Shown: positions 11,916 to 48,212 of the stretch, piece by piece
Numbering within the stretch: position 1 is the first letter of the stretch
How the letters are laid out: the number at the start of each line of letters is the position of its first letter
Assembly: GCA_031551355.1 (NCBI GenBank)
Contig: JAVBNT010000038.1
Location: 4,126-68,125 of the forward strand
DNA: 64,000 nucleotides
Origin: Candidatus Xenobia bacterium
Lineage (GTDB): Bacteria; Vulcanimicrobiota; CADAWZ01
Direction of reading: 5' to 3'
The notes under the pieces: model-generated
What the model saw: only the letters and a program-made list of their open reading frames with translations
Told to the model about the DNA's origin: nothing
Database searches by the model: none
Translations under genes and position numbers: made by a program

Positions 11916-12650
11916 ATGAATAATAAAGTTGCTTTTATTACAGGGGCTGGACGCGGAATCGGCAGGCATATAGCATTAAAGCTTGCGTCTGATGGATTTG
12001 ATTGTGCTTTGAATGATCTTAATATGGACGATCTTTCATCGGTTAAGTCTGAAATTGAGTCTTTGGGAAGAAGATGTGAGATTTATAAAGCCGATGTCTC
12101 GTCTACGTCTGAAATAGAGGATATTGTAAAACAGATTGTCGAGGCATTTGGCCGCGTTGATGTGCTTGTGAATAATGCCGGAATAACTCGTGATGAGCTT
12201 TTAATGCGCATGAAGGAAGAGGATTGGGATAAAGTTATCAGTGTTAACCTTAAAAGCGTTTTTAACTGCACTAAAGCTCTTTCCAGAGTAATGATGAAAC
12301 AGCGCAGCGGGAAGATAATCTCAATATCGTCGGTTGTCGGTATAATGGGAAATGCCGGACAATGCAACTATTCCGCATCAAAAGCGGGTGTTATCGGTTT
12401 CACGAAGTCAATAGCCAGAGAACTGGCGTCAAGAGGAGTCACTGCCAATGCCGTTGCTCCCGGATTTATTCAGACCGATATGACGGATAAGCTTTCGGAT
12501 GAAGCTAAAAACCGCCTTTCTTCACAGATTCCGCTCGGATATCTGGGAACGGCCAAAAATGTTGCCGATGCCGTTTCTTTTCTTGCATCTGATGCTGCAT
12601 CCTACATTACCGGACAAGTTCTTAATGTCGATGGCGGCATGATTATGTAA
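11916..12650 (+). CDS. fabG: 3-oxoacyl-ACP reductase
   Basis: Short-chain dehydrogenase/reductase family. 'TGAGRGIGR', 'NNAGI', and 'YSASKAGVIGFTKS'. Confidence 0.9.
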   Translation: MNNKVAFITGAGRGIGRHIALKLASDGFDCALNDLNMDDLSSVKSEIESLGRRCEIYKADVSSTSEIEDIVKQIVEAFGRVDVLVNNAGITRDELLMRMKEEDWDKVISVNLKSVFNCTKALSRVMMKQRSGKIISISSVVGIMGNAGQCNYSASKAGVIGFTKSIARELASRGVTANAVAPGFIQTDMTDKLSDEAKNRLSSQIPLGYLGTAKNVADAVSFLASDAASYITGQVLNVDGGMIM

Positions 12651-23346: not shown

Positions 23347-23928
23347 TTAAATAGAACCTAACCTGCCGCTGTCGCCCTTCTTTTTCATGTGTAAATCAAT
23401 ACTTTCTTCTGCAACTCTTTTGAGATTTTTCTCGATAAAACTTATTAAAAAATCTACGTTTTCAAGGCTTGAGTAAAATGAAATGGTATCGACTGTTCCT
23501 GAAGACGGTAAGATCTGCCCTTTCGGTGTTTTTTTTACCAGTGCCTCAAGTGTTACCATATACTCTTTTTGTTTGATAAAAAGAACGTTTTTACTTCTTG
23601 TTATAATGGAGCCCATTCTATCCCATTTATACTCTTTTTTATTGCCGTCGGTTAATATTTCCAATCCCCAGTCATGTGCCACAATCGTTTCGTTTTTGAA
23701 CCTGTTTTCAAAGTTTTTTCTGGCCGGTATGAAATTAACTAAAATTACGGCGCATGCGCCCAGAATTAACAGACTCCAGAGCAAAAGTTTTGGTGAAGTG
23801 AATATAAGAATAATAGCTACTATCAAAAGTATTACCGAAACGACTATTGCAATCTTCATTCCCTGAATCATTTGCCTGTTTTCCGGAACATCATAAGTAT
23901 AGAAACTTTTGATGGGCATTTTGTTCAT
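23347..23928 (-). CDS. YcxB-like membrane protein (two TM helices plus a C-terminal domain)
   Basis: Two adjacent TM helices, then a soluble domain with 'NVLFIKQKEYMV'. A paralog lies at 39893..40453. Confidence 0.4.
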   Translation of the reverse strand: MNKMPIKSFYTYDVPENRQMIQGMKIAIVVSVILLIVAIILIFTSPKLLLWSLLILGACAVILVNFIPARKNFENRFKNETIVAHDWGLEILTDGNKKEYKWDRMGSIITRSKNVLFIKQKEYMVTLEALVKKTPKGQILPSSGTVDTISFYSSLENVDFLISFIEKNLKRVAEESIDLHMKKKGDSGRLGSI

Positions 23929-24120
23929 AAACGTTGGTATCCTCTCACGTTGTTATTTAAGTTATCTTCTATAAGATAATATAACATATTTGCTGATATT
24001 TTTTCAACAAGTGTCTTGTTATTATCATTATTTTATTAAAAAATCAGAAGGTTTTTTTCTGCATGGAGTAAAAACTCTAAATATAATAATTTGATAATTA
24101 TATGGAGATTCCTTTAAAAG

Positions 24121-24321
24121 ATGATAGTCAATCTTAACGGCAATAAACATTATTTTGCTGCTGCTCCAACAGTGCAGGAGCTCCTGACTTCGGGTTTGGC
24201 GGAATATTCGGTTATGGCTGTTGTGCTGAATGGAAATGTCGTCAGGGACAGTGACTATCCGCAGATATTCTTGTCGGACGGAGATTCCGTTGAATTGATC
24301 CCGTTTATCTCCGGCGGTTAA
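24121..24321 (+). CDS. ThiS/MoaD-like small protein with a C-terminal Gly-Gly
   Basis: 66 aa, ends '...SVELIPFISGG'. Pattern 'VLNGNVV...DGDSVELI' is typical of the ThiS beta-grasp fold. No thiF/thiG/thiH is nearby. Confidence 0.65.
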   Translation: MIVNLNGNKHYFAAAPTVQELLTSGLAEYSVMAVVLNGNVVRDSDYPQIFLSDGDSVELIPFISGG

Positions 24322-24345
24322 CTTATAATTTAAGGTGCTTTATTT

Positions 24346-25548
24346 ATGAAAAATCTTTTTAAAAATATAAACTTTTTTCTGCTGTGGTCAGGACAGACGG
24401 TTTCTTCCGCCGGGGGATGGATCAATTATGTCGGTTTGAATGTTCTTCTTTATCAGATTTCCGGTTCGGGAAAACTTTTAGGTGCTTTTTTTGTTGCCAG
24501 ACTTGTTCCGGCACTTTTTTTCGGGCCGTTGGGCGGATATCTTGCCGACCGTTATGATAAACGCAAACTGATGATAATGTGTGACACTGTCCGTGCACTG
24601 TCCGTACTTGTTTTTCTTTTTACGGAGAATGTGATTATTTTTTTCACACTGGGATTTTTTCTTTCCGTTTTTGACAAAATATATACATCGGCCAGCGGAG
24701 CCGTTTTGCCGGATGTTGTCGGCCGGCAGGAACTGCTGGCCGCCAATTCACTTAACCGTATTTCCCAGTCGGTCACGACTATTCTCGGCCCTGCGATCGG
24801 CGGCTTTTTAATTGGTATATGGGGATATAAAGTTGTCTTTATTGCCGATAGTATGACTTTCATTTTCTCAGTGATTACCCTGCTGTTTATAAAGTATGTC
24901 AGAGAGGAAAAGGAAGCTTCCAAGACTAAACAGCGTCCGGGATTCATCTCCGAGTTAAAGTATGCGTTTGGATTTTTGCTGACATCTTCTTTTTTACTTT
25001 CCGTTGCCTGTGTAAGGTTTATGGACGCTTTGGGGAGCGGAGCTTTTAACACCGTTTTCCCTGTTTTTTCTTCAAAAATGGTCGTTCCTTACGGCACTTT
25101 CTACGGATGGCTTCTGTCGGCATACGGGGTGGGAACGTTACTCGGATCTTCCCTTACCGGTTTTTTCAGAAAGAAATTCGGTACCGGCCATCTTTATTAT
25201 GTTTCGACGATTGTGATGGCACTTGGGTTGGCAGGGGCATTTCTATTCTCAAATCCGGCTATCAGTTTGGTTTTAATTGCGGTCGGAGGATTTGGGGAAG
25301 GTATTGCCGGTGTTCTTTTCAGCACTGTCATAATGGAGAAAACTCCTAAGGAGATATTAGGTAAAATATTCGGTACCCTGAGTTCTTTCGTATGGATGAT
25401 CTGCGGTCTGGGAATGCTTTTGGCAGGACAATTTTTAGATTACGTTAAATACGATGTAATAACGACATCGGGCGGTATATTCATAGTAGTTTGCACCCTG
25501 TTTTTCTGGATGAAGTACTGTCTTGACAAAAAAGCACAGGAGGATTGA
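24346..25548 (+). CDS. MFS transporter (EntS/MFS_3-like exporter)
   Basis: About 12 TM helices. N-terminal 'LLWSGQTVSSAGGWINYVGL...YLADRYDKRKL' is typical of MFS_3 exporters. Confidence 0.8.
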   Translation: MKNLFKNINFFLLWSGQTVSSAGGWINYVGLNVLLYQISGSGKLLGAFFVARLVPALFFGPLGGYLADRYDKRKLMIMCDTVRALSVLVFLFTENVIIFFTLGFFLSVFDKIYTSASGAVLPDVVGRQELLAANSLNRISQSVTTILGPAIGGFLIGIWGYKVVFIADSMTFIFSVITLLFIKYVREEKEASKTKQRPGFISELKYAFGFLLTSSFLLSVACVRFMDALGSGAFNTVFPVFSSKMVVPYGTFYGWLLSAYGVGTLLGSSLTGFFRKKFGTGHLYYVSTIVMALGLAGAFLFSNPAISLVLIAVGGFGEGIAGVLFSTVIMEKTPKEILGKIFGTLSSFVWMICGLGMLLAGQFLDYVKYDVITTSGGIFIVVCTLFFWMKYCLDKKAQED

Positions 25549-25551
25549 GTT

Positions 25552-26580
25552 ATGACTTTTCCGTTTAAACCCAAGATAGTAGGGTGGGAGCTTACAAGAC
25601 GGTGCAATTACCGGTGTCTTCACTGCGGTACAAGCTGCGGTGCGCCCAGAGATGATGAACTGACGCTTGATCAGGCCTATAAAATGATTGACGATCTTGC
25701 CGAACTTGGATGTGAAATACTCAATCTGTCCGGAGGAGAGCCGTTGATGCACCCTCATTGGGATAAGTTTGCCGTCAGATTGAAGGAAAACAATATTACT
25801 CCGTATATGATTACCAATGCTTACTATATTGAAGACAGTATTGAGCGCATATTAAATTCGCCTTTGAGGCGTATAGGAATAAGCATTGACGGTGATGAAA
25901 AGCTTCATAATCATATAAGGCAAAATCCTGAGGCTTATGCGCGTGTTCTCTCCGCAGCTAAACTTTTGAAAAAACATGGTGTTTCTGTCGGAGCCGTTTC
26001 TCATGCCGCCAAATATAATTTGCATTTGCTTGAGCACATGTATCAGGAATTTTTGAAAATACCGCTTGATTTCTGGCAGATTCAGCTGGCATTTTCCTCC
26101 GGCCGTATGAAGGATTATTCAAATGAACTTTTGGAACCGGAACAGCTTGTAGAAGTGGCAAAATTTATTGAGGAAAAACGCAAAGAAAAGAAAATGATGG
26201 TATGTGTCGGTGACAATCTCGGATATTACTCGTCATATGATATCGTTGATTCGCCCTGGAAGGGCTGCCATGCGGGCCGCTGGGTAGCAGGAATAGAAGC
26301 CGACGGCACGGTTAAAGGATGTCTTTCACTTACTCCTGAGTTTAGAGAGGCTAATCTAAAAGAGCGTTCTTTTAAGGATATCTGGCAGGACAGAGAACTG
26401 TTCAAGTATAACCGCTATTTCAATCCGGAAGATATGTCCGGCAACTGTAAAGGATGTGATAAGGCCCTTGACTGCCGCGGTGGCTGCAGGGTAACTTCTT
26501 TCTGCATGACGGGAAATGTTTTTGACAATCCTTACTGTCTTTACAGGGTTGAGAAGGAAGCTAAGTCCGGTGCAAAATAG
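25552..26580 (+). CDS. Radical SAM enzyme with a C-terminal SPASM domain
   Basis: 'CNYRCLHC' is the CxxxCxxC motif, and 'LSGGEPL' fits. The SPASM cysteines are 'WKGCHAGRW...GCLSL' and 'CKGCDKALDCRGGCRVTSFC'. Confidence 0.85.
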   Translation: MTFPFKPKIVGWELTRRCNYRCLHCGTSCGAPRDDELTLDQAYKMIDDLAELGCEILNLSGGEPLMHPHWDKFAVRLKENNITPYMITNAYYIEDSIERILNSPLRRIGISIDGDEKLHNHIRQNPEAYARVLSAAKLLKKHGVSVGAVSHAAKYNLHLLEHMYQEFLKIPLDFWQIQLAFSSGRMKDYSNELLEPEQLVEVAKFIEEKRKEKKMMVCVGDNLGYYSSYDIVDSPWKGCHAGRWVAGIEADGTVKGCLSLTPEFREANLKERSFKDIWQDRELFKYNRYFNPEDMSGNCKGCDKALDCRGGCRVTSFCMTGNVFDNPYCLYRVEKEAKSGAK

Positions 26581-27847
26581 ATTTGTACTGCCAAAAATAG
26601 AGAACGGTGCATTTTCTCCTTTTGCCGGTGTTGTTTTTTATCCTATTCTTTTGAATTCTTTTTCACTTACAGTGACTGTCAGAGATGGTGTTGCCTGGGA
26701 GGATGATTCCGGTTTTGGATGGGCGCATTTTCTGGAACATGCAAATTTTCAAAAGACGGATCGTTATGCCTCTTTCCTTGAAATTGCCTCATTAGCGGAG
26801 TCGCTTGGCGCCAGGATCAGTGCTTTTACAACCAGAGACTGCGTTACCTATTCCATTCATGCTCCTTCCTGGTCTCTTGAAGAATCGTTTCGGATTATGA
26901 CTTCGCTGATTTCCCATTTAAACTTTGAGGATGATATACTTGACTCTGAAAAAGAAATTATTTTTCAGGAAATGGAGAGAGAAAAGGCTAACTTTAGATC
27001 TTACTATGTTCTGTTTTCGGAAAGTGAACTGCTGTCTCCGTCGATGCTCGGTCGCTATAGTCTTGGTTCAAGAGAAAGTCTTCTGTCTATAAACTCTGCC
27101 AATATCGCAGATTATAAACGCAGAGTTTACAGCCGTGAAAATATCTGCTTGACTCTTTGCGGCGGTTTTGATCTGGAGACGGCTCAGAACCTTACCGGTA
27201 TATTTCTGGAATCGCTTCCGTCTGCTAAAGTGCGCTTGCTGCAGGACTATAATCCTGCAAAGATCTCGGAACGCAGACGATTATACCACTGTCCGTCGGC
27301 GGCGAATCAGGTGCAGATGATCACTTATTTCCGCTTCCCGGCAGTTGCTTATTATGACTGGCTTAAAGCTTCACTTGTAAATACACTTTTGGGCGTAGGT
27401 TTTTCGTCTTTGTTTTATAAAAAATTGCGCCATGAGCAAAAACTTACATATACTACCGCAACTCAGTTGAAATTATACCCTGTGGCCGGAACTTTCCGTC
27501 TTGTGCTTGACTTGGACCCCAAATCAGCATCTTTTGCCGAGAACCTGATCTACAATGTGATCGCGGAACTTGACGATATTTCTGAGAATGATTTTGTTTT
27601 GGCCAAAAATAAATTTTGGGGCGATATCGCATTTAAGCTCTCAGATATGAACTCTTACGGACTTTTTGCCGCCAGAAGACAGTTTATGGGAGAGGAGCGG
27701 CTTCTTTTGTCAAACCTTTATGAGGAATTGAAAAACATGAGCAGGGAAGAACTCTCGGCGTTTGCCGTAAAGAATTTCATCAGAGATAATTCTATCGTTT
27801 GCTTTGCCGGCAGTGATGAGGCTTTAAATACCGTTTCAAAACAGTAG
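26570..27847 (+). CDS. M16 (pitrilysin/insulinase) family zinc peptidase
   Basis: The inverted zinc motif HxxEH ('WAHFLEHANFQ') sits near the N-terminus. GTG 26570 after GAGAAGGAAG overlaps the rSAM stop. The ORF track start at 26516 would overlap by 65 nt. Confidence 0.75.
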   Translation: MQNRFVLPKIENGAFSPFAGVVFYPILLNSFSLTVTVRDGVAWEDDSGFGWAHFLEHANFQKTDRYASFLEIASLAESLGARISAFTTRDCVTYSIHAPSWSLEESFRIMTSLISHLNFEDDILDSEKEIIFQEMEREKANFRSYYVLFSESELLSPSMLGRYSLGSRESLLSINSANIADYKRRVYSRENICLTLCGGFDLETAQNLTGIFLESLPSAKVRLLQDYNPAKISERRRLYHCPSAANQVQMITYFRFPAVAYYDWLKASLVNTLLGVGFSSLFYKKLRHEQKLTYTTATQLKLYPVAGTFRLVLDLDPKSASFAENLIYNVIAELDDISENDFVLAKNKFWGDIAFKLSDMNSYGLFAARRQFMGEERLLLSNLYEELKNMSREELSAFAVKNFIRDNSIVCFAGSDEALNTVSKQ

Positions 27848-27856
27848 GAGGTTGTT

Positions 27857-28237
27857 ATGGATAAGTTTCGCTTAAAATTAGATCATATCGGCTTAATTAC
27901 GTCTGATCTCACTCAGGTGGCCGATTTTTATGAAAATATTTTGGGATTTAAGTCGGAACCGGTTATTGAACCGGAAGATCGTCCTCAGAAAATGCAATAT
28001 TTTCAAAAAGACGGTTATGTGCTGGAGTTCATCCAGCCTTTCAGGGAACTGGCACCGCAGGAAACAGGAATGAAGCATATCGCCTTTACCTGTATTCTTC
28101 TTGATGAGGCTTTTGCGGAAATAAAAGCAAAGGGCTACAAGATGCTGATGGAAGAGCCTCTGCGCTTTGAAGACAGAAGATTTTTCTTTTTTTATGGGGT
28201 GAACAGTACACTAATCGAATTCATGGAATTCGACTAA
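27857..28237 (+). CDS. VOC/glyoxalase-family protein
   Basis: 'LDHIGLITSDLTQVADFYENILGF' is typical of the glyoxalase/bleomycin-resistance fold. Confidence 0.7.
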   Translation: MDKFRLKLDHIGLITSDLTQVADFYENILGFKSEPVIEPEDRPQKMQYFQKDGYVLEFIQPFRELAPQETGMKHIAFTCILLDEAFAEIKAKGYKMLMEEPLRFEDRRFFFFYGVNSTLIEFMEFD

Positions 28238-28360
28238 ATGCGTTCAAATTGACGAATCTCCGTCGCCAGATTGGATTTCGCTCATTCCGCCGTAGTATGT
28301 CTACGGCTCAATCGTCGAAATCCGATCTGTCATAGGCTCTCCGTCAATTTGAACGCATTT
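28238..28360. repeat. MITE-like element (family B), about 123 bp, with perfect 18-bp terminal inverted repeats
   Basis: TIRs 'AATGCGTTCAAATTGACG' and 'CGTCAATTTGAACGCATT'. Internal nested inverted repeats. Homologous copy at 44121..44244. Confidence 0.6.
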
Positions 28361-28475
28361 AGTTTTTAGATGAATTGCGCCCGGCATGCGGGCGAGGTAG
28401 AAAAGACTGCGCTACGCTCGTCAAAATCATTTTTGCCCTAGCCTTCGGCCAGCAATTGACAGCCTAAGCTGTAAT

Positions 28476-28542
28476 TCATTGAAATCAATGAATCCCCGTC
28501 GCCAGATCGGATTTCGCTATGGTTGCCGTATCTCAACCATCG
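28476..28542. repeat. Truncated or diverged copy of the family-B element
   Basis: Shares 'GAATCCCCGTCGCCAGATCGGATTTCGCT' with 28253..28281, then diverges. Confidence 0.4.
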
Positions 28543-28645
28543 TTTTCCACTTTACCGTTACCGCCGGAGCCGCCGCAGTATTGTTCTACGCCTTACTCGT
28601 AAAATCCCTGAAAATAAGTAATTAAATATTTAACACGGAGAATTC

Positions 28646-28837
28646 ATGAAAACAATCAGTAAATCGGTGGCAATGATAATCGTTCTAGCCATGATGATAT
28701 TTTCAGAGAATGCATATGCCAAAGTGTATTGCGAATATTGCAACAAATCTATTTCTTCCAGATCATTAATCAGGAACATAAAGTCTTGCTGTAACGAATG
28801 TCACAAAAAACGTGAACAAAAAAACTGGTTTACATGA
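28646..28837 (+). CDS. Small secreted Cys-containing protein (63 aa)
   Basis: Signal peptide 'VAMIIVLAMMIFSENAYA', then 'CEYCNKS...SCCNECHKK'. Its stop overlaps the next start (ATGA). Confidence 0.4.
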   Translation: MKTISKSVAMIIVLAMMIFSENAYAKVYCEYCNKSISSRSLIRNIKSCCNECHKKREQKNWFT

Positions 28838-29301
28838 AAGATAAAAACACGTCAACGGAAGGGAATGTATCCTTTAGATGTATGTTTTGCGGTAGAGATT
28901 TGGCGGACAGGCCGATAGCTAAGAACGGAAAGCAATACTGCGAAAGCTGTATTACTTTCGTTCCGGATAATCAAACGAAAAACCGAAATCCGTCAGGCAG
29001 TCAGTCAAATCAAAAAACGGCAGCCTGCCAGTGGTGCGGAAAATCAATAAGCGGAAAAATATACAATCGCTACGGCATGCAATACTGTGAACGCTGTCCG
29101 CCGGAAAAAAGTTTGCAATCGATATGCATCATCTGCAGGAAGCCAATAAAAAATGGTGCCTATAGTTCCGGCAATGAATTGTGCTGCTTTAGTTGTTCGG
29201 GCCCTCCTAAACGCTGCAAATCATGTGGAAAGGCAATATGGGGGTCTCAGGCTCAGAGGTATAAATTCTGTAAAAAATGCGGAGAAATAGAGAGCATTTA
29301 G
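28834..29301 (+). CDS. Protein with four tandem zinc-ribbon-like repeats
   Basis: The motif CxxC, 11-13 residues, (Y/F)CxxC repeats four times: 'CMFCG..YCESC', 'CQWCG..YCERC', 'CIICR..CCFSC', 'CKSCG..FCKKC'. Confidence 0.5.
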   Translation: MKDKNTSTEGNVSFRCMFCGRDLADRPIAKNGKQYCESCITFVPDNQTKNRNPSGSQSNQKTAACQWCGKSISGKIYNRYGMQYCERCPPEKSLQSICIICRKPIKNGAYSSGNELCCFSCSGPPKRCKSCGKAIWGSQAQRYKFCKKCGEIESI

Positions 29302-32400: not shown

Positions 32401-34086
32401 TTAGTCCTTGAATGTCTTTATCCACTCCAAAAAATCATATTCCTGGGGGTTGACAATCAGCGTTGTTTCTCCGGATATTGTGACCATGCCCGGCGGCATG
32501 CCTTTTTTCTTGGCGACATTTTTCGCCAGGGTATATGATACCGGTACTTTTGCCGATTTTTTTGCTTTCGAGAAATATGCGGCAATGGTAGCCGCCCTGA
32601 CAATCACTTCGTTGGGCATTTTTTCACCGCTTTTAGTCCTTATTATCACATGACTTCCGGGGATTCCTCTGGTATGGAACCACAGATCCGCTTTGTTTGA
32701 TATTTTAAGACTAATCTCGTCGTTCTGTTCAGGGTTTTTTCCGGCAATAATGTCAAAGTTTTTGTAGGAATATCTTCTTGGGCCGGATGTAAAATGACTT
32801 TCTTTTGGTGCTGTTTTGCTCTGCCAGTTGAATAGATCAGAGGCATCCAAAAGCTGATATTCTTCAGTCGCTTTTTCCAGTTTCTCAAGATTTTCTTTAG
32901 CAATGATGATTTTCGAATTGCACTCATCAAGCCTCTGAGTTAAGATCGGAATTCCCCGCTGTGACTTTTTGAACTTCTCAAAATATTTTTGGGCATTGTC
33001 GCTGGCGGAAAGTGACGGATCCAATTCTATCTCTACTGTAGACGGCGGCGATTCATAGATGTCATCTACTTTTATACTCGTATCTTTCAGTCTTATCATA
33101 TAAAGATTGGTTAGTATCAGCTCGCCTTTGCGCTTTAGTTGCCTGTTTTTTTCCAGCTTTTCCAGATCGCCGGCGATGGCGGTTCGCTTTTTTAGCAGTT
33201 TTTCCAGCTCTTTTTTAAGCCGCAGCCTTAGTTCCTTTTTACGGGTTTCAAAATTCTCTTCCCTGTTGGCATTTTTATAAAAAGAGCAAAGCATATCGTT
33301 GACGCTGGAATGTTTTTCCGCCTCACCATCTCCGTGACCACCTATATCCCATAGAGAATATTTTTCCATTATGCCGTTTTGCGAGTAAGTCGTCGGCGCT
33401 AATTTTCCGCTCTCTATTTTTTGAAAAAAGTCATTCCACTTTTCCAGCAGTCCGGGATAATCCGTTACCTCTCCGCTTTGAACTGCAAGCAGCTGCTCTG
33501 CGGTCTCCTTTGAAAAGCCGATAAAAGTTTTTATTATTTTATCATTGAGCTTACCGGTGCCGTTTTCGAAGATGGTTTTTAATCGTTCTGCCGCCTGCGG
33601 TGACAGCGGATCACATTTGTGCGGCGGCAAGGAGGGAGCATAGTAATCTTTGTTTTCAGACATTCTTTTATCGCCCATGGTTCTGTAGGAACCCAGTACC
33701 TTATTGTTTCCCGACAGAAGTATGATATTGCCGTCTCGTTCATGAAACTCAAAAATCAGCTGCCATTGCGAAATTTTGTCACTGAAATTGAAGATGCTCC
33801 TTTTTTCAAATCCCTGGTTCTCTACGCCTGTAAGCCTTCTTCCCTGCAGGTATTTTCTCATGAGCATACAAAAAGACGACGGCTCTTTGCCGGCGGCTTT
33901 TTTGCCGTCAATAAGGTGAAATCTTTTATCTTCACCTTTTAGCTTTACAAACAAATTTTGCTCAACGATCCCGTAAAACTGGAAGATATAGCTTCCGTCG
34001 GACATCTCGTATATTTTTCTTAAAATATTGCCGCTCAGAATATTTGTCAGTTCTCTTGAGATTAAATATGTAATAATGCCGTCCAT
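32401..34086 (-). CDS. rqcH: RqcH / NFACT-family protein (FbpA-like, ribosome quality control)
   Basis: N-terminal NFACT-N-like 'MDGIITYLISRELTNIL...', a long coiled coil, and a C-terminal NFACT-R-like region. Length 561 aa. Confidence 0.8.
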   Translation of the reverse strand: MDGIITYLISRELTNILSGNILRKIYEMSDGSYIFQFYGIVEQNLFVKLKGEDKRFHLIDGKKAAGKEPSSFCMLMRKYLQGRRLTGVENQGFEKRSIFNFSDKISQWQLIFEFHERDGNIILLSGNNKVLGSYRTMGDKRMSENKDYYAPSLPPHKCDPLSPQAAERLKTIFENGTGKLNDKIIKTFIGFSKETAEQLLAVQSGEVTDYPGLLEKWNDFFQKIESGKLAPTTYSQNGIMEKYSLWDIGGHGDGEAEKHSSVNDMLCSFYKNANREENFETRKKELRLRLKKELEKLLKKRTAIAGDLEKLEKNRQLKRKGELILTNLYMIRLKDTSIKVDDIYESPPSTVEIELDPSLSASDNAQKYFEKFKKSQRGIPILTQRLDECNSKIIIAKENLEKLEKATEEYQLLDASDLFNWQSKTAPKESHFTSGPRRYSYKNFDIIAGKNPEQNDEISLKISNKADLWFHTRGIPGSHVIIRTKSGEKMPNEVIVRAATIAAYFSKAKKSAKVPVSYTLAKNVAKKKGMPPGMVTISGETTLIVNPQEYDFLEWIKTFKD

Positions 34087-34169
34087 TTTTATTCCTTTAA
34101 TTATAAATAAAGAGCCCGACGGACCAAACCGCTAAAGGGCTCTTATATCAATATTTTTTATTTAAATTA

Positions 34170-36680
34170 TTATTGTTTTGCCGCCATCTCGGCAATCTCC
34201 TCATCTCTTGAGCGCAAGAGCTTAAGCTCCTTGCCGTCGATGGTAATTTTGCTGGCCTTTATCGGCTCCGCAGATGAAGCACCCTGGAAAATATCTTCTC
34301 CCGGTTTCAGCTGTGACAGGATTGCCGCTACTTTTTTCTGGCATGCCAGACCTTTTTCAATGTCGAAAAATTCGCCGAAGAACTTTGAAATTGTTTCTTT
34401 ATTCTCTTCCACGGTAGGATCCATGGCCGCCATTGTTCTTATCTGGCTGTTAAGGCTGGCAAACTCCACTTTTGTTGTGCTGTCTTCAAAATTGTTACAT
34501 GTCAGCTTTACTTTGATGCCTCTCTTGCCCGTTTCCTGAAGCAGTTCGCCCAGTTCCCTGTCACCGTCAATACTGGCCCTGTCAATGGTAATCTCCTGCT
34601 GTGCATCCTGAATTCCGGCTTTCTGCCAGTGTTCGGAGAATTTGCCGCGGGCGATTCTGAGCATCTCCTCGTGGGTAACCATATTTCCGAATCCGCGTGT
34701 CTCATCCATAGACTGTCTCGACAGGCTGTGACTGCCGACATATGCTTTTTCCTGATCTATTTCGATATAGTTATTGCTGAGCGAGTCAATTTTCATTTGT
34801 GCAACATTGGCGCCGCTTGCTTTTAAATCCTCAATCATTGCCGCATCCTGCGGTTTGAGTTTTCTCGGTCCGAGTATGATATGTACCGGTATACCCTGTT
34901 TGGCTTTGGCTTTGATTATTTCCGCCATTTTTCTGTCGGTAAGTTCCTTGGTGGTTATCTTAATACTCTTTTCCGCACTGTTTAAGAGACTGGTCAGCTG
35001 CTGTCTGGCGTTCCCCGGACTTGCGACCACTTCCGATGTTGGCGACAACTCGGCAGCTTTTCCGCTGGCAGACGTTTTTTCCGCATCAGCGCGCAGCATT
35101 GTTTCAATTTCTTTTACGTCTTTTTCCGAGATGTTTATAACTCCGTAAGAGTTGTTGTATTTGAATGCCGAACCGGAAAGGTTGTCCGGGAATGTTATTG
35201 ATTCCTTACCGTCGACAAGGACACAGGTTCCCTGCATGGATTTGTATGTCGAGTCGGTCATTTGTACTTTTACGCCGGCTTCTTCAAGTTCTTTGGCTGT
35301 GTCAATGTTAATAACGCAGTTCGGATCCCAGGGGAATGGATTCTGCGGCATCATTACCGTTACTTCCACGCCGTCTTTGGCTGCCTTCTTTAATGCGTTT
35401 TTCGTGCCGCCGTCGGAGAAAAGGTTCGTCTGGATAATGACTTCCTTCTCAGCTGTTCTGATCGCCCCTTTTACCGCAGAGCCGATGGCACTGGGATCGC
35501 TTATAACCATTTTTGAGGGAATCGCAAATCCTTTATCCCGGTAACGGTCTATCACTCCGGCCAACTGTTCTTTTTCATCGTGGAAGATATATCCAAGTTC
35601 ACGGTTTTTGTCAATTGCGGACATGCTGAAGTTTTGCGAGCCGATATATGTCTTGGATTCTTTCGTGCCTTCATCAATATTCACGGCTTTGGCATGTATG
35701 TACGGCGTAACAAGGAAGCTTACGTCCGCACCTTTGAGTGCGAGATATGCAGCATTTTGCATGTTACCCTGGGCGATTCCCGGATCGGTAAGTGTCAATT
35801 CGGTTTTTACGCCTTCGCTGAGTTTCTGTGCCAGAAGGTCGATAACGCCTTTATCCGTAAAGCCCTGCTGCAATACATGTATGGATTGCTTTGCGTTACC
35901 GATAAGACCGGTCAGCTTGTCCCTGGCATTGTCGGGACTGATTACCAGATTTGTCTCACCCATGTCAGGCAGTTCAACTCTTTCCCAGTCGGAATTGAAT
36001 ATCGTCTGAATCTGATTTACTACCTTGGGGTTTTCAATCATGATAGCCCCGAGATCGAGATTCTTTTTGAACGTTGAACTTCCTAGATTGCCGGTAAGTA
36101 TCAGCGCTTTTTCGCCGTCAAAAACCATACTCTTTTCATGAGTGACCCTGCTTTTGGAGAATACCGGATTATCCGGTTTGTACTCGGCGCCTGCGGCAAC
36201 GAGCTCTTCGATGGCTTTTTCACTGGGGTTTGCTTTTTGCTGAGTCCAGTAGAACGGATCGTCTTCAACCATCAGCCTTACCTTAACACCTCTGTCAAGG
36301 GCGTTGTGGAAGGCAGTCATCAATTCGGGGGTGTTGGCCGTTATAATATAGATATGAAGGTCTATTGATTCTTTGGCATTGTCAATCATGGAAACAAGGG
36401 TTTCCAGACCGTTTTCTTTCATAACGACAATGTCCGGAGCCGGATCCAGAGGGGCCGCTTTTTGCGGGGATTGTGATTCAGGTTTTGCTGATGCGGGAGC
36501 TGTTTGCTTCGGCTTTGCCTTTGAACGTGAGGCAGACAGGCTTATATCGGCCACATCAGCCGTCGAAACCGAACTACTGCTTTCAGGAGCGGCCTTGGCA
36601 GGTATTGGCGTTTGATCGTTTTGCTGTATTCCTATTGAAATGCTCTGGGGAAAATTAAAGTTCAAGTTGCCAATATTCAT
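34170..36680 (-). CDS. Large protein with four phospholipase-D-like repeats (two canonical HKD motifs, two degenerate) and a low-complexity N-terminus
   Basis: 'VTHEKSMVFDGEKALILTGNL' and 'YIHAKAVNIDEGTKESKTYIGSQN' are the HxKxxxxD...GSxN motifs. Later repeats 'YKSMQGTCVLVDG' and 'YIEIDQEKAYVGSHS' lack His and Lys. N-terminal Pro/Ser/Ala-rich region with no signal peptide. Confidence 0.7.
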   Translation of the reverse strand: MNIGNLNFNFPQSISIGIQQNDQTPIPAKAAPESSSSVSTADVADISLSASRSKAKPKQTAPASAKPESQSPQKAAPLDPAPDIVVMKENGLETLVSMIDNAKESIDLHIYIITANTPELMTAFHNALDRGVKVRLMVEDDPFYWTQQKANPSEKAIEELVAAGAEYKPDNPVFSKSRVTHEKSMVFDGEKALILTGNLGSSTFKKNLDLGAIMIENPKVVNQIQTIFNSDWERVELPDMGETNLVISPDNARDKLTGLIGNAKQSIHVLQQGFTDKGVIDLLAQKLSEGVKTELTLTDPGIAQGNMQNAAYLALKGADVSFLVTPYIHAKAVNIDEGTKESKTYIGSQNFSMSAIDKNRELGYIFHDEKEQLAGVIDRYRDKGFAIPSKMVISDPSAIGSAVKGAIRTAEKEVIIQTNLFSDGGTKNALKKAAKDGVEVTVMMPQNPFPWDPNCVINIDTAKELEEAGVKVQMTDSTYKSMQGTCVLVDGKESITFPDNLSGSAFKYNNSYGVINISEKDVKEIETMLRADAEKTSASGKAAELSPTSEVVASPGNARQQLTSLLNSAEKSIKITTKELTDRKMAEIIKAKAKQGIPVHIILGPRKLKPQDAAMIEDLKASGANVAQMKIDSLSNNYIEIDQEKAYVGSHSLSRQSMDETRGFGNMVTHEEMLRIARGKFSEHWQKAGIQDAQQEITIDRASIDGDRELGELLQETGKRGIKVKLTCNNFEDSTTKVEFASLNSQIRTMAAMDPTVEENKETISKFFGEFFDIEKGLACQKKVAAILSQLKPGEDIFQGASSAEPIKASKITIDGKELKLLRSRDEEIAEMAAKQ

Positions 36681-44574: not shown

Positions 44575-45411
44575 ATGAGCGGGGATTTCTATGCACCGCA
44601 GTCTGCAGCCGAAGCTGTCCGCATAAAAACTGCTGATAAAAAAGCGTTTTTTCTTGCCGGCGGCACTGTTCTTAATACCTGGAGAAAAGGCCGTAATATA
44701 GGCCTTATTTCCCTGCACAGAATGGGACACAATCAAATAGAGCTTAAAGACGGGGTTATTACGATTGGTTCTATGGCTACATTGACGGAAATTTCGGTGA
44801 ACAATTTATTTGCGGAAACTTCACCCTTAAGGGAAGTATCGGGATCTTGCAGGGCAATATCCAAGAATATAAGAAATATGGCGACACTGGGCGGTGTCCT
44901 TGGCTCTTCCTTCAGCCGTTCGGATCTTTTGCCGGTTCTTCTGGCTCTGGATGCACATGTGTTGTTGTTGACTGAAGCTGGTGAGTCTTCGGTTCCTGTC
45001 GCCGACTTTCTGATGACGCCGCCGTCGGCATCTCCCAGATTAATTCTGGGGGTAAAAATAAAATCTGATGATTCGCTTACATTGAAAACGGCACGATTTG
45101 CCCGTTCTTCAAATGATTTACCTGTTGTTAAAACAGCTTGCTCATATAGATGCAGTGACGGTAAATTCAAGGATTTAAAAATCGCTGCCGGTGGAATATC
45201 CGATAAACCGATCAGGCTGCTTCCGCTAGAAATGGTGCTTGAAGGACAGGCTTGCTGTTCCGCTAAACTGAAAAATGCTATTTGCAGTGTGATGGCGGAG
45301 ATGAAGACACCTACCTCGGATTTGAGAGGCAGCGGAGATTTTAAGAAGGCTCTGGCTGTGGCTTTGCTTGAGGATATACTTATTTGCCGTGACAAGGAGG
45401 CTTGTTCCTAA
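44575..45411 (+). CDS. Molybdenum hydroxylase FAD-binding subunit (CoxM/XdhB-like)
   Basis: 'AFFLAGGTVLN' is the FAD-binding motif. It is coupled by TAATG to the downstream large subunit. Confidence 0.8.
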   Translation: MSGDFYAPQSAAEAVRIKTADKKAFFLAGGTVLNTWRKGRNIGLISLHRMGHNQIELKDGVITIGSMATLTEISVNNLFAETSPLREVSGSCRAISKNIRNMATLGGVLGSSFSRSDLLPVLLALDAHVLLLTEAGESSVPVADFLMTPPSASPRLILGVKIKSDDSLTLKTARFARSSNDLPVVKTACSYRCSDGKFKDLKIAAGGISDKPIRLLPLEMVLEGQACCSAKLKNAICSVMAEMKTPTSDLRGSGDFKKALAVALLEDILICRDKEACS

Positions 45412-48212
45412 TGGAGTTAAATATATTGCTTAATGGTAAGAAAATGTCGCTTGAAGCTCAGCCTCTGGATAAGCTTTCAACGATACTTCACAACAAAGGA
45501 CTTCTTTCCATCAGGACTAACTGCGACGGGCAGGGTACCTGTGGAGCATGCAGTGTTATTATCAACGGCGTTAAAAAGAATTCATGTCAGATAATTGCCG
45601 GCCAAATTGAAGACGGAACCGAGATTTTGACGGCCGAAGGCCTGACGAAAGGGCGTGAGCTTCACCCGATTCAGAACGCATTTCTTGAAGCCGGTGTAGT
45701 TCAGTGCGGCCATTGTACACCCGGTATGATGCTTGCCGTTAAAGAACTTTTGGACCACCATCCGGATCCTACACCGGAACAGATGGAGGATTTTCTCTCC
45801 GGTAACATCTGCCGGTGTACCGGTTATAAACAGTTTTTTGATGTGCTTAAAATTCTTAAACAGCAGAGATCTTCAAACAGTCCGCAGTTTCGTGAAGACC
45901 TGAAAATAGTCGGAAAACCAATGCAAAAGATTGACGGGCCAAGACTTGTAAAGGCTGCGAAATCGTATGTTGACGATATGGTTACCCCGGGAACTCTGAT
46001 AATAAAGGTTCTGAAGAGTCCTCATGCCCATGCCAGAATACGTTCAATTGATGCTTCAAAGGCGGAAGCGCTTGACGGCGTTGCTCTTGTTGTTACACAT
46101 AAGAATGGGCCGTCAGTTCCGTATAATACTGCCGGTCAGGGATTCCCTGAGCCGTCTCCGTATGACTTCAGGCTGGTTGATTCCGTGATGCGCTATCTTG
46201 GTGACAGAGTTGCCATTGTGGCCGCTGAAACGGAAGAAATAGCCGAAAAGGCAATGGAACTTATTGAGGTCGATTATGAAGTTTTGCCGGCAATCTTTGA
46301 CCCATGGGAAGCAAGTAAGGGAGAGGTCCTGATTCAGGACAGGGATATCTCCGTGGATCCTCTGCATATCGGCCAGGATCCGAAAACGAACCGTGCCGCC
46401 CATAATTCCGGCGGCATAGGTGACCTTGAAAAAGGATTCGCTGAGGCTGATATTATTGTTGAAAGGGATTACGGCTCTTCTAAAGTTCAGTGTACTCCGA
46501 TGGAAACCCACAGATGTTTTGCCTATATAGAAAATGAACGTTTGGTTATCAGGGCTTCAACACAGGTTCCCTGGCATCTGCGCCGTATTGTGGCAAAAGT
46601 TCTTGGGATAAAAGAGAATCAGATCCATGTCATCAAGGAGCGCGTCGGCGGCGGTTACGGTGCCAAACAGGATATTGTAATGGAAGATATCGTCGCATGG
46701 GTTACCTGGCAGACAGGGCGTCCTTCATATTACAAGATGACGAGGGAAGAAGAGTTTGTTAATACGAGAATCAGGCACCCTATGTACTTTACCGTTAGAG
46801 TCGGAGCCAAAAAAGACGGAACTTTGACGGCTATCGATATCAAGGAAATATCCGATACCGGGCCTTACGGTGTCCATTGCCTTACGGTGCCCATGAACGC
46901 ATGCTCAAAGTCACTGCCTTTGTATAAATGCGATAATATGCACTATGATGTTTCGACATACTATACCAACAATGTTATTTCCGGCGCGTATCAGGGATAT
47001 GGCGCTCCCCAGGGAAGTTTTGCTCTGGGAATGGCTATCGCCGAGATTGCTGAAAAGCTTAATATTGATCTGCTTGATTTTATTAAGAAAAATATGGTTG
47101 AAAAAGGATTCAAGCTTGAAATCTTAAAATCCCTTGGCGAAGGTCAGGAGGGGATTGCTCAAGTGATCAGTTCCTGCGGTCTGAAAGAATGCCTCGACAG
47201 AGGTGCCAAACTGATTGGCTGGGATAAGCCGCTTGTCTCCGATAAGGAGTATCTGAAAAAGGGCAGGGGAGCTGTAATTATCCAGCAGGGTTCCGGTCTT
47301 CCGGGTATAGATTCCGCCAATGCCGAGATAAAAATGCTTGGTGACGGCACGTTTATGATTTTAATGGGCGGCACTGATCTCGGCACCGGTCTTGATACCC
47401 TTGCCGTAAAGGTTTCCGCCGAAACTCTTTGTGTAGATCCTAAGTCATTCTCACTGCTTTCATCCGATACGGATGTGACTCCGTTTGATGTCGGAGCATA
47501 CGCTTCTTCGGGTACTTATTTCAGCGGAATGGCTGTTTGCCGTGCTGCAAGTGATATGAAGGAAAGGATACTGAGCTCGGCAGCCGAGCTTTTAAAGTGT
47601 GATAAATCCGTTTTGAAACTGGAATTTTCCGGTCGTATAACAGGAGGTCCCCGGGAAGTTACTTTCCCGGAGATAGCAGCTTTCACCCAGTCTGGAAACG
47701 GAATCGGACAGATTATCTCCAAAGGCAATTTTACGACTGAGGAGGCCCCTATTCCTTACGGAGCACATTTTGCCGAAGTTACCGTTGATGTACGCACAGG
47801 TGTTGTTACTGTCGATAAATATTATGCCGTTCAGGAATGCGGTACTCCGATTAATCCGGAACTTGCCGTCGGTCAGGTTTACGGCGGGGTCGTAAAATCA
47901 ATAGGACATTCTATATTCGAAGAAATGAAGTTCGATTCCAAGGGTGCATGTCTGAATCCCGATTTTATGGATTATAAAATCCCGATGATCAGGGATTTGC
48001 CTAAGGAGTTCAAATGTGAGCTGATACAGGTTGACGATCATCTGGGACCTTACGGCGCGAAATCTGTATCCGAGATCAGCACTAACGGCGCGTCGGCTGT
48101 AATTGGAATTGCCATCTACAAGGCTACAGGGGTATGGATGTGCGACTGGCCGTTTACTGCCGAGCATGTATATAAGGCTCTCGCGGATGCCGGTAAAGCC
48201 GCGGTCTGTTAA
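45411..48212 (+). CDS. Fused [2Fe-2S] plus molybdopterin-binding subunit of a xanthine dehydrogenase / aldehyde oxidase family enzyme
   Basis: 'CDGQGTCGACSVIINGVKKNSCQ' and 'QCGHCTPGMM' are the two 2Fe-2S sites. The large MoCo-binding domain has 'RVGGGYGAK'. ATG 45411 follows AAGGAGG. Confidence 0.85.
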   Translation: MELNILLNGKKMSLEAQPLDKLSTILHNKGLLSIRTNCDGQGTCGACSVIINGVKKNSCQIIAGQIEDGTEILTAEGLTKGRELHPIQNAFLEAGVVQCGHCTPGMMLAVKELLDHHPDPTPEQMEDFLSGNICRCTGYKQFFDVLKILKQQRSSNSPQFREDLKIVGKPMQKIDGPRLVKAAKSYVDDMVTPGTLIIKVLKSPHAHARIRSIDASKAEALDGVALVVTHKNGPSVPYNTAGQGFPEPSPYDFRLVDSVMRYLGDRVAIVAAETEEIAEKAMELIEVDYEVLPAIFDPWEASKGEVLIQDRDISVDPLHIGQDPKTNRAAHNSGGIGDLEKGFAEADIIVERDYGSSKVQCTPMETHRCFAYIENERLVIRASTQVPWHLRRIVAKVLGIKENQIHVIKERVGGGYGAKQDIVMEDIVAWVTWQTGRPSYYKMTREEEFVNTRIRHPMYFTVRVGAKKDGTLTAIDIKEISDTGPYGVHCLTVPMNACSKSLPLYKCDNMHYDVSTYYTNNVISGAYQGYGAPQGSFALGMAIAEIAEKLNIDLLDFIKKNMVEKGFKLEILKSLGEGQEGIAQVISSCGLKECLDRGAKLIGWDKPLVSDKEYLKKGRGAVIIQQGSGLPGIDSANAEIKMLGDGTFMILMGGTDLGTGLDTLAVKVSAETLCVDPKSFSLLSSDTDVTPFDVGAYASSGTYFSGMAVCRAASDMKERILSSAAELLKCDKSVLKLEFSGRITGGPREVTFPEIAAFTQSGNGIGQIISKGNFTTEEAPIPYGAHFAEVTVDVRTGVVTVDKYYAVQECGTPINPELAVGQVYGGVVKSIGHSIFEEMKFDSKGACLNPDFMDYKIPMIRDLPKEFKCELIQVDDHLGPYGAKSVSEISTNGASAVIGIAIYKATGVWMCDWPFTAEHVYKALADAGKAAVC

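Follow-up and report, generated by a model that had tools for sequence, protein, structure and literature searches.

A 64,000-nucleotide stretch of a Candidatus Xenobia bacterium genome (contig JAVBNT010000038.1, positions 4,126–68,125 of the forward strand; hereafter the window) carries a run of five genes encoding a ThiS-family protein, a major facilitator superfamily (MFS) exporter, a radical S-adenosylmethionine (rSAM)/SPASM enzyme, an M16 peptidase and a vicinal oxygen chelate (VOC) protein. [quoted passage not shown] An earlier interpretation made from the letters alone (the sequence-only reading) had proposed a RiPP or cofactor maturation locus. For the family, this proposal is supported by the conserved cassette and by precursor open reading frames (ORFs) in relatives. 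For the window itself it holds only in part, as the precursor gene is missing.

Conservation of the cassette

A protein search with the rSAM enzyme returned 916 relatives at E ≤ 1e-20, about 60 of which are at least 45% identical. Gene neighbourhoods were obtained from contig look-ups, a scan of species-representative genomes and a metagenome scan, and were annotated by tblastn with the window proteins. A locus was counted in the family if its rSAM shared 47% or more identity with that of the window, which gives 28 distinct loci (L numbers denote loci throughout).

The gene order common to the family is MFS_3–rSAM/SPASM–M16–VOC, usually followed by a gene for a short-chain dehydrogenase/reductase (SDR). 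The MFS gene lies directly upstream of the rSAM gene in most orthologous loci, and an orthologous VOC gene follows M16 in L003, L004, L006, L013, L014, L018, L019, L026, L090, L091, L093 and L094. The SDR gene is immediately 3′ of VOC in L003, L004, L006, L013, L014, L090, L093, L094 and the P0008 contig, whereas L018 has it upstream on the opposite strand. The cassette is found in records named Eremiobacteraeota/Eremiobacterota (L003), Chloroflexota (L004), Elusimicrobiota (L006, L016 and L026), Bacillota (L018) and Vulcanimicrobiota/UBP9 (L014, L019 and L021), among others. rSAMs that are at most 44% identical have none of the other three cassette genes nearby and belong to different families.

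Two outcomes had been named as evidence against the maturation proposal, a housekeeping identity of the rSAM enzyme and a lack of conserved co-occurrence of the genes. Neither was found: the rSAM matches no housekeeping equivalog, and MFS, rSAM, M16 and VOC occur together in the same order across several phyla. We regard MFS–rSAM–M16–VOC as a conserved and apparently undescribed peptide-modification cassette. The searchable literature yielded no description of the cassette or its peptides, although absence there is not proof. Downstream of the window cassette are NFACT/RqcH-like and four-repeat PLD-domain genes (32401–36680, − strand), which occupy the downstream side in L003, L009 and L091 too; the P0008 contig has a similar arrangement. 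These shared downstream genes indicate that the cassette locus is ancestral in this lineage rather than recently transferred.

Precursor peptides upstream of the cassette

In 18 of the 28 orthologous loci, the cassette is preceded by one to four tandem, almost always uncalled ORFs of 22–35 amino acids on the same strand. They provide 25 distinct short peptides from 17 loci; one further peptide is truncated at the edge of L093. A hidden Markov model (HMM) built from the first nine peptides recovered the additional members. Tandem copies number three in L003, L090 and L094, and four in L009. Examples of the peptides are MFWNENETITCSEIHAMYIIPPDDGGGC, MFWNENENVNTNEMHGMYMPDPGGTI, MYLDKEQITCEEIHGMYVIPPDDGGI and MYLDREEITCEEIHGCYIIDPDW.

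The aligned precursors share the C-terminal motif E-[IVM]-H-[GA]-x-Y-φ-φ-(P/D)-P-(D/G), after which the tail is variable. The N-terminal part is acidic and reads M-F-W-N-E-N-E or M-Y-L-D-x-E, with the consensus (W/Y)-x-[DEN]-x-E. His and Tyr are invariant across the 25 precursors and E, P and D nearly invariant, while Cys is absent or variable. Each of the 25 short ORFs has a GGAGG-type Shine–Dalgarno site upstream of its ATG, and in L090 a stem-loop with a T-run lies between the last precursor and the MFS gene. No Pfam or NCBIfam model matches the peptides. We conclude that the upstream short ORFs are real genes, and their short HxxY products look like the substrates of the cassette, making this a candidate RiPP-type family.

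Some precursor-bearing loci also have a larger second rSAM/SPASM gene a few kb upstream. In L093 (125–1606) it encodes a 493-residue rSAM/SPASM protein, and in L090 (1–745) a glycosyltransferase–rSAM/SPASM fusion on the opposite strand.

Proteins encoded by the window cassette

The five window genes are co-directional and closely packed on the + strand, at the positions given by the sequence-only reading, with spacers of 24 nt (ThiS–MFS), 3 nt (MFS–rSAM) and 9 nt (M16–VOC). The overlap it described between the rSAM and M16 genes is also present, and measures 11 nt with a GTG start at 26570 or 65 nt with the ATG of the longest ORF at 26516. On L001, a Logan contig of identical sequence, the M16 gene is called from GTG 26570 (425 residues). 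Pfam and NCBIfam uphold the domain assignments of the sequence-only reading, namely ThiS, MFS_3, Radical SAM/SPASM, M16 and VOC.

The rSAM/SPASM gene (25552–26580, + strand) encodes a predicted peptide maturase of 342 residues, with PF04055 at 89.9 bits and the SPASM domain PF13186 at 30.6 bits. The CxxxCxxC motif (C18/C22/C25) and C239, C257, C299, C302, C308, C312 and C329 are invariant in 42 homologues. The protein thus has both features expected of a SPASM member, the SAM-cluster motif and the C-terminal 7-Cys motif (CX2CX5CX3C and flanking Cys), and this invariant set of cysteines fits three [4Fe–4S] clusters. In the AlphaFold2 model (pLDDT 92.9) the first barrel strand begins at residue 9; because the model opens directly with this strand, the enzyme lacks an N-terminal RiPP recognition element (RRE) domain. 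The best PDB fold match to the model is PqqE (6c8v), followed by SkfB, CteB, the anaerobic sulfatase-maturating enzyme (anSME) and SuiB, and a profile search of solved structures places SkfB, BlsE and PqqE on top.

Classification of the rSAM against curated models, which the sequence-only reading had advised, reaches no equivalog cut-off, housekeeping or other. The best NCBIfam scores come from the peptide-maturase families TIGR03913 (199 bits, cut-off 592) and TIGR04103 (187 bits, cut-off 725). The anSME model TIGR03942 gives 60.6 bits against a cut-off of 349.45, so the enzyme is not identified as an anaerobic sulfatase maturase. The heme and heme d1 models likewise stay below their cut-offs [AhbD 143 of 500 bits, NirJ2 133 of 500, NirJ 128 of 515 and AhbC 111 of 650], as does TIGR04317 (67.2 bits, cut-off 380), the rSAM maturase of a tungsten-cofactor oxidoreductase with a MoaD-like partner. 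Of the 74 alignment columns without variation among precursor-linked orthologues, the window rSAM matches 71.

Regarding the other cassette members, the first conserved gene (24346–25548, + strand) encodes a 400-residue MFS_3 (EntS/Mef-like) exporter of the H+-antiporter type, which scores 141 bits with MFS_1, 115 bits with MFS_3 and 225 bits with TIGR00900, the last being below its cut-off. The M16 gene (26570–27847, + strand; longest ORF from 26516) encodes an insulinase-type zinc peptidase of 425 residues. Its catalytic glutamate, which had been flagged for checking, is retained: HFLEH occupies residues 53–57 (H53/E56/H57), and E134 lies 77 residues on. The HxxEH...E site is conserved in all 18 aligned M16 sequences, including that of the window, and together with the M16_C domain (PF00675 and PF05193) it gives the protein the features of an active M16 subunit. 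The last conserved cassette gene in the window (27857–28237, + strand) encodes a 126-residue VOC protein of the glyoxalase/dioxygenase fold, with 55.7 bits for Glyoxalase and 51 bits for Glyoxalase_4 and no NCBIfam cut-off reached. A search for an SDR remnant after VOC in the window found none. The only SDR match in the window (11916–12641) is 12 kb away and 36–38% identical to the cluster SDRs.

Absence of a precursor gene from the window

The sequence-only reading had reported no obvious short precursor, and this observation stands: neither an HxxY-type nor any other conserved short ORF lies in 23900–28700 or in any frame of the 64 kb. The HMM of all 25 peptides, run over the six-frame translation of the window, gives a best score of 4 bits (E = 17), and a second HMM scan and regular-expression scans of all six frames are likewise empty. 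A precursor gene next to the modifying enzymes is therefore a feature of relatives (18/28) and not of the window. One 34-residue ORF at 23990–24094 contains ...FLHGVK..., but we attribute it to chance, as the invariant Tyr is missing and no Shine–Dalgarno site is seen before its TTG start.

In the neighbour-joining tree of rSAM sequences, the window groups with L007, L092, L008, L010, L091 and L009, among which only L009 has adjacent precursors (four). The other members hold different parts of the cassette. L091 has MFS–rSAM–M16–VOC, L007 and L092 have only MFS–rSAM, and L008 and L010 have only rSAM–M16; the rSAM gene of L010 adjoins an ORF resembling DNA gyrase A. The rSAMs of the precursor-less members retain 71–74 of the 74 columns fixed in precursor-linked enzymes, and all four cassette ORFs of the window are intact. 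Since the invariant rSAM columns and the M16 active site are kept, the enzymes are probably still selected for the same chemistry. The substrate of the window cassette is thus most likely encoded elsewhere in the genome; otherwise the cluster has been recently orphaned.

The thiS gene in the precursor slot

The thiS-family gene (24121–24321, + strand) encodes 66 residues ending in ...ELIPFISGG. It matches PF02597 and TIGR01683, the latter with 47.4 bits against an equivalog cut-off of 37.45, and with its C-terminal Gly-Gly it has the sequence features of a ThiS. Its best matches among solved structures are the ThiS proteins 1tyg_B, 2k5p and 1f0z, and the archaeal-type MoaD model gives 23.6 bits against a cut-off of 49.5. 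Although the protein resembles thiamine ThiS in all these respects, its context differs, as it heads an unrelated peptide-maturation cassette. As the sequence-only reading had noted, there is no thiF, thiG or thiH partner, and also no moeB and no neighbouring thiE or thiO, among the window ORFs scanned by Pfam (59 of the 63 listed long ORFs, ThiS and one 63-residue ORF, leaving out four ORFs of 101–156 residues and the ORF cut by the right end). There is also no Rfam match to a thiamine pyrophosphate (TPP) riboswitch, even at E up to 10. A thiamine-operon context is therefore absent within the scanned window ORFs, and the genome may hold such genes elsewhere.

The suggestion that ThiS is a conserved scaffold, sulfur carrier or substrate partnered with the rSAM/SPASM enzyme is not supported by the comparison with relatives, since ThiS is absent from 28 of 28 orthologous loci. 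This search covered the fetched flanks by tblastn to E = 10 and by a scan for ORFs of 55–110 residues ending in GG. The locus L091, with an rSAM 68% identical to that of the window, is instructive because it is collinear with the window on both sides. The shared left flank (− strand) consists of genes for an aldo/keto reductase, a Germane-domain protein and a 189-residue protein; the shared right flank (− strand) consists of genes for NFACT/RqcH, a PLD-domain protein and a 107-residue protein, followed by an N_methyl protein. In L091 only about 104 nt lie between the 189-residue protein gene and MFS, a slot that fits neither ThiS nor a precursor. Two segments of the window are therefore additional with respect to L091: one of about 310 nt that holds thiS and its flanks, and a block at about 28.2–32.4 kb. 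Genes for two FMN reductases and a nitroreductase are found in this block along with one for a ferredoxin-domain protein, two for Cys-rich proteins and a 115-residue ORF that was outside the Pfam scan.

Among 1.84 billion representatives, the sole close ThiS homologue is P0122, with 64% identity; the next relatives are at most 46% identical, save one 52% match with a weaker score. In a word-indexed database, only two proteins had come up as matches to ThiS. P0122 is encoded on the related 750-bp contig L172, which carries a divergent membrane-protein gene, ThiS and the start of MFS, and only there does the ThiS–MFS adjacency recur. Between the window ThiS and P0122 the dN/dS is 0.08 at a dS of about 2.9. 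This shows that thiS is a selected gene and that the adjacency has outlasted substantial divergence. The spacer between ThiS and MFS is 140 nt in L172 (525–666), where it contains the two GC-rich hairpins GGGCGATTCACGAATCGCCC and GGGGGCGCACACCGGGCGTCC, compared with 24 nt in the window. In summary, we read thiS as a lineage-specific insertion into the emptied precursor slot, without a conserved role in the system; here it probably shares a transcript with the cassette.

Further observations concern the surroundings of thiS. The L172 hairpins resemble repetitive extragenic palindromic (REP)-type elements and are absent from the window spacer. About 33 nt before the thiS ATG (window 24088–24120, L172 291–323; TTTGATAAyTATAyTGAGATTCCTTTAAAA) are near-identical in the two contigs, though dS exceeds 1, and this stretch may be a translational or regulatory element. 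The likeness between the ThiS tail LIPFISGG and the precursor tail VIPPDDGG was considered and set aside as coincidence: precursor tails after Tyr-φ-φ-P-P vary widely, and the ThiS tail follows the usual C-terminal pattern of ThiS proteins. Genes for a molybdenum enzyme of the xanthine dehydrogenase family (an FAD-binding subunit and a fused 2Fe–2S/Moco-binding subunit) lie 16 kb downstream, at 44575–48212. The organism accordingly makes molybdopterin, which requires a MoaD-type sulfur carrier.

Comparison with known systems

The closest known logic is that of pyrroloquinoline quinone (PQQ) biosynthesis, with subtilosin-type clusters and mycofactocin next. Both the present family and PQQ use a very short precursor with conserved Glu and Tyr (22–35 residues here, about 23–30 in PqqA), an rSAM/SPASM enzyme of about 340–390 residues and an M16 zinc peptidase in the same operon, and oxidoreductase-type tailoring suggests a small, heavily processed product. 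PqqE 6c8v, the best fold match, is also the only solved structure among the top profile matches that spans the whole window enzyme. However, the window proteins fall far below the equivalog cut-offs of PqqE (TIGR02109, 96 bits against 381) and PqqF (TIGR02110, 24.3 bits against 320). There is no PqqB, PqqC or PqqD/RRE in the window cassette or in the Pfam tables of the relatives, and the MFS exporter, VOC and SDR stand in place of PqqB/C. The precursor motif also differs, being E-x-x-x-Y in PqqA and E-x-H-x-x-Y here, where the His is invariant.

Subtilosin-type sactipeptide clusters similarly encode an rSAM/SPASM enzyme (AlbA) together with M16 proteins (AlbE/AlbF) and an export function, and the thioether-forming enzymes CteB and SkfB are among the best structural matches to the window rSAM. 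However, the sister enzyme reaches about 52 bits with the AlbA model, compared with 850, and for the window enzyme AlbA does not appear among the top matches. The present system further differs from subtilosin by the lack of an N-terminal RRE, by precursors that are not Cys-rich, by a single M16 gene and by MFS rather than ABC export.

Features in common with mycofactocin are a short precursor in which a Tyr is critical, an rSAM/SPASM enzyme, a peptidase that releases a small product and, in many loci, a linked SDR. Membership is not supported, as MftC (TIGR03962) gives 116.6 bits against 265. In addition, the Tyr is internal here, MftB (RRE), MftD, MftE and MftF are missing, and the peptidase is of the M16 and not the creatininase type. 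The presence of an exporter points to an extracellular product rather than an intracellular cofactor as in mycofactocin. The families TIGR03913 (GDL-motif peptide) and TIGR04103 (nif11-class maturase 3), which are rSAM/SPASM maturases defined by their association with peptides, give the top curated scores for the window rSAM and its relatives. These scores are about one third of the cut-offs, the models cover 412–477 positions compared with 342 residues here, and both the GDL motif and the Nif11 leader are lacking from the peptides described above. The family is probably an rSAM-modified ribosomal peptide system, and it falls outside each known system by HMM cut-offs and by missing signature genes.

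Based on these parallels, a pathway can be proposed. The rSAM/SPASM enzyme would abstract a hydrogen atom from the peptide and install a cross-link or another radical modification in the H-x-x-Y/Glu region. By analogy with PqqE, the likeliest product would be a bond onto the Tyr ring; the Glu–Tyr bond made by PqqE and the cyclophane-forming enzymes are precedents for such a cross-link. The M16 peptidase would then trim the leader and the tail, the VOC metalloenzyme, with the SDR where present, would tailor the product, and the MFS_3 pump would export it.

Short ORFs in sister clades

rSAM clades that are 38–43% identical to the window enzyme carry other conserved short ORFs, for which there are no curated models. 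The first sister clade has the motif (M/L)Y(L/F)TDWQ.R.(M).D..G..C.F.EL...Y in 20 ORFs, several per locus, from at least ten loci including Methanosarcinales; these ORFs are upstream of the rSAM gene (L067, L115, L125, L128, L134, L137, L138, L140, L156 and L157). In the second clade, the motif LAP.AF.FAA.KY...WQDD.R(Y/F) is found in an ORF of 30–40 residues at 12 loci, including Zixibacteria, Ignavibacteriales and Eisenbacteria (L027, L028, L032, L033, L044, L049, L057, L069, L118, L123, L135 and L146). As the sister clades have short ORFs of their own, this whole region of rSAM sequence space looks like one of peptide maturases.

The rSAMs of the first clade are 38–40% identical to that of the window, some of its ORFs are tandem or fused repeats, and its N-terminal MYL.D resembles the MYLD-type precursors of the window's family. 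The ORF of the second clade lies about 2.4 kb downstream of the rSAM start and may represent a further precursor family.

Alternative explanations

Several points weigh against assigning the window genes to a RiPP pathway. No product, substrate or reaction has been observed and the chemistry is purely inferred; because the window has no precursor, a RiPP function in this genome rests on an unseen substrate. The six precursor-less members of the clade hold differing subsets of the cassette, which could reflect decay or a changed function of the rSAM. Many RiPP rSAM systems depend on an RRE/PqqD-like domain that binds the leader, and the cassette lacks one; the heme-pathway enzymes AhbD and NirJ are among the sub-threshold matches of the rSAM. 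The ThiS–MFS adjacency, kept in a second organism at dS > 1, together with the 24-nt spacer, leaves room for a functional link. Lastly, the description of the cassette as undescribed rests on its absence from Pfam, NCBIfam and the searchable literature, which does not prove it.

Three other explanations were weighed. It is unlikely, in our judgement, that the window cassette is a decaying remnant which has lost its precursors and SDR, makes no product and retains intact ORFs only because the loss is recent. Precursors and SDR are indeed absent from the window, and two insertions, thiS and the block at about 28.2–32.4 kb, break the ancestral locus. The cassette has also been eroded piece by piece in the nearest relatives: M16 and VOC are gone from L007 and L092, MFS is gone from L008 and L010, and a gyrase A-like ORF lies against the rSAM gene in L010. 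However, none of the four cassette ORFs is truncated, all cluster-binding cysteines and 71 of 74 invariant columns are retained in the rSAM, and the M16 site is kept. The rSAMs of precursor-less loci are 68–79% identical to that of the window across lineages whose DNA is only 66–71% identical, with no long branches, and this conservation fits continued purifying selection. A non-RiPP function, in which the rSAM modifies a metabolite (a tetrapyrrole, as AhbD/NirJ do) or a protein encoded at a distance while the short ORFs are leader peptides or chance, is the least probable explanation and a very remote one. The sub-threshold scores of AhbD, NirJ and NirJ2 (128–143 bits), the hemC/hemD-like genes a few kb away in L003, the lack of an RRE domain in the rSAM cassette and the seven loci without adjacent short ORFs could be taken in its favour. 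Yet the heme-family scores are far under their cut-offs and lower than the peptide-maturase scores, and the 25 short ORFs combine an invariant His and Tyr, uniform Shine–Dalgarno sites and tandem amplification with a fixed position and strand across phyla. An exporter and an M16 peptidase with an intact active site are co-conserved with them, and the sister rSAM clades carry conserved short ORFs of their own.

The remaining explanation is that ThiS works in the system here, either as a thiocarboxylate sulfur donor or in place of the precursor, serving the rSAM and M16 enzymes as substrate or scaffold. ThiS occupies the slot that holds the precursor in relatives, is co-directional, and is separated from the MFS start by 24 nt in which no terminator lies. 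Its adjacency to MFS is conserved in the diverged L172 (64% amino-acid identity, dS about 2.9, dN/dS 0.08), the window/P0122 pair forms an isolated ThiS branch, and no thiF/G/H/moeB or TPP riboswitch was found in the scanned ORFs of the 64 kb and by the Rfam search, respectively. Nevertheless, ThiS is missing from all 28 other loci, including the precursor-less L007, L008, L010, L091 and L092. Since these precursor-less loci also lack ThiS, precursor loss is not coupled to ThiS gain. The ThiS sequence is canonical, passing the equivalog cut-off and matching ThiS structures best, and it lacks the E-φ-H-G-x-Y motif. Genes for an E1-like activating enzyme or a JAMM protease are likewise missing near thiS. 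The tight coupling to MFS is not conserved either, because the L172 spacer is 140 nt with two hairpins. We therefore think an involvement of ThiS improbable, about as much so as decay. In its most specific form, in which the short HxxY precursors have been replaced by the ubiquitin-fold ThiS, carrying sulfur into the product as a thiocarboxylate or being itself processed by the rSAM and M16 enzymes, it is more improbable still. An enzyme and export cassette whose peptide is encoded elsewhere thus remains our preferred reading of the window.

Boundaries and neighbouring genes

Upstream of thiS, an AT-rich intergenic region (23929–24120, + strand) separates it from a divergent gene for a 193-residue membrane protein, and presumably holds the promoter. 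Scans for promoter and terminator consensus sequences found no more sites than in shuffled sequence, and Rfam matches upstream of thiS or downstream of VOC are at chance level only. On the other side, a long inverted repeat (28233–28363, + strand) begins at the VOC stop codon. Its 63-nt arms (28233–28295 and 28301–28363) are 78% complementary, with an RNA folding energy of −69.2 kcal/mol (z = −12). One arm recurs 236 nt downstream as a partial second copy (28473–28518), and the 23-nt core has two sites only within the window. The repeat sits at the left edge of the block at about 28.2–32.4 kb, which the collinear L091 lacks. It is probably the 3′ boundary of the operon, and may be a (very long) terminator or an insertion scar resembling a miniature inverted-repeat transposable element.

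About 400 nt downstream of the rSAM cassette are two overlapping genes for Cys-rich proteins with no Pfam match. The first (28646–28837) encodes a 63-residue Cys-rich protein with an apparent signal peptide and CxxC...CCxxC, and the second (28834–29301) a 155-residue protein with four CxxCG(K/R)...YC(E)xC repeats that resemble zinc ribbons.

Significance

rSAM/SPASM peptide maturases have yielded cofactors (PQQ and mycofactocin) and antibiotic scaffolds (darobactin and sactipeptides). It is conceivable, though we hold it only tentatively, that in the wider family, whose phyla are mostly uncultivated, the E-φ-H-G-x-Y core gives rise to a small molecule that resembles PQQ, is heavily processed and is exported; this is more probable than the replacement of the precursor by ThiS. 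If that replacement were nevertheless true, it would mean that a RiPP-type cassette has been re-targeted to, or coupled with, a sulfur-carrier protein. The gene logic, which combines a short Glu/Tyr peptide, an rSAM/SPASM enzyme, an M16 peptidase, tailoring enzymes of the oxidoreductase type and an exporter, points to a small molecule that derives from a peptide and is exported, and not to a classical bacteriocin. What looked like an orphan operon is now a testable family whose precursor motif and fixed gene set are defined and which offers 25 natural variants of the precursor, spread over mainly uncultivated phyla; these are the inputs for heterologous reconstitution. The precursor-less clade, with thiS in the vacated slot, provides a natural experiment on how such systems lose, relocate or possibly swap their substrates.

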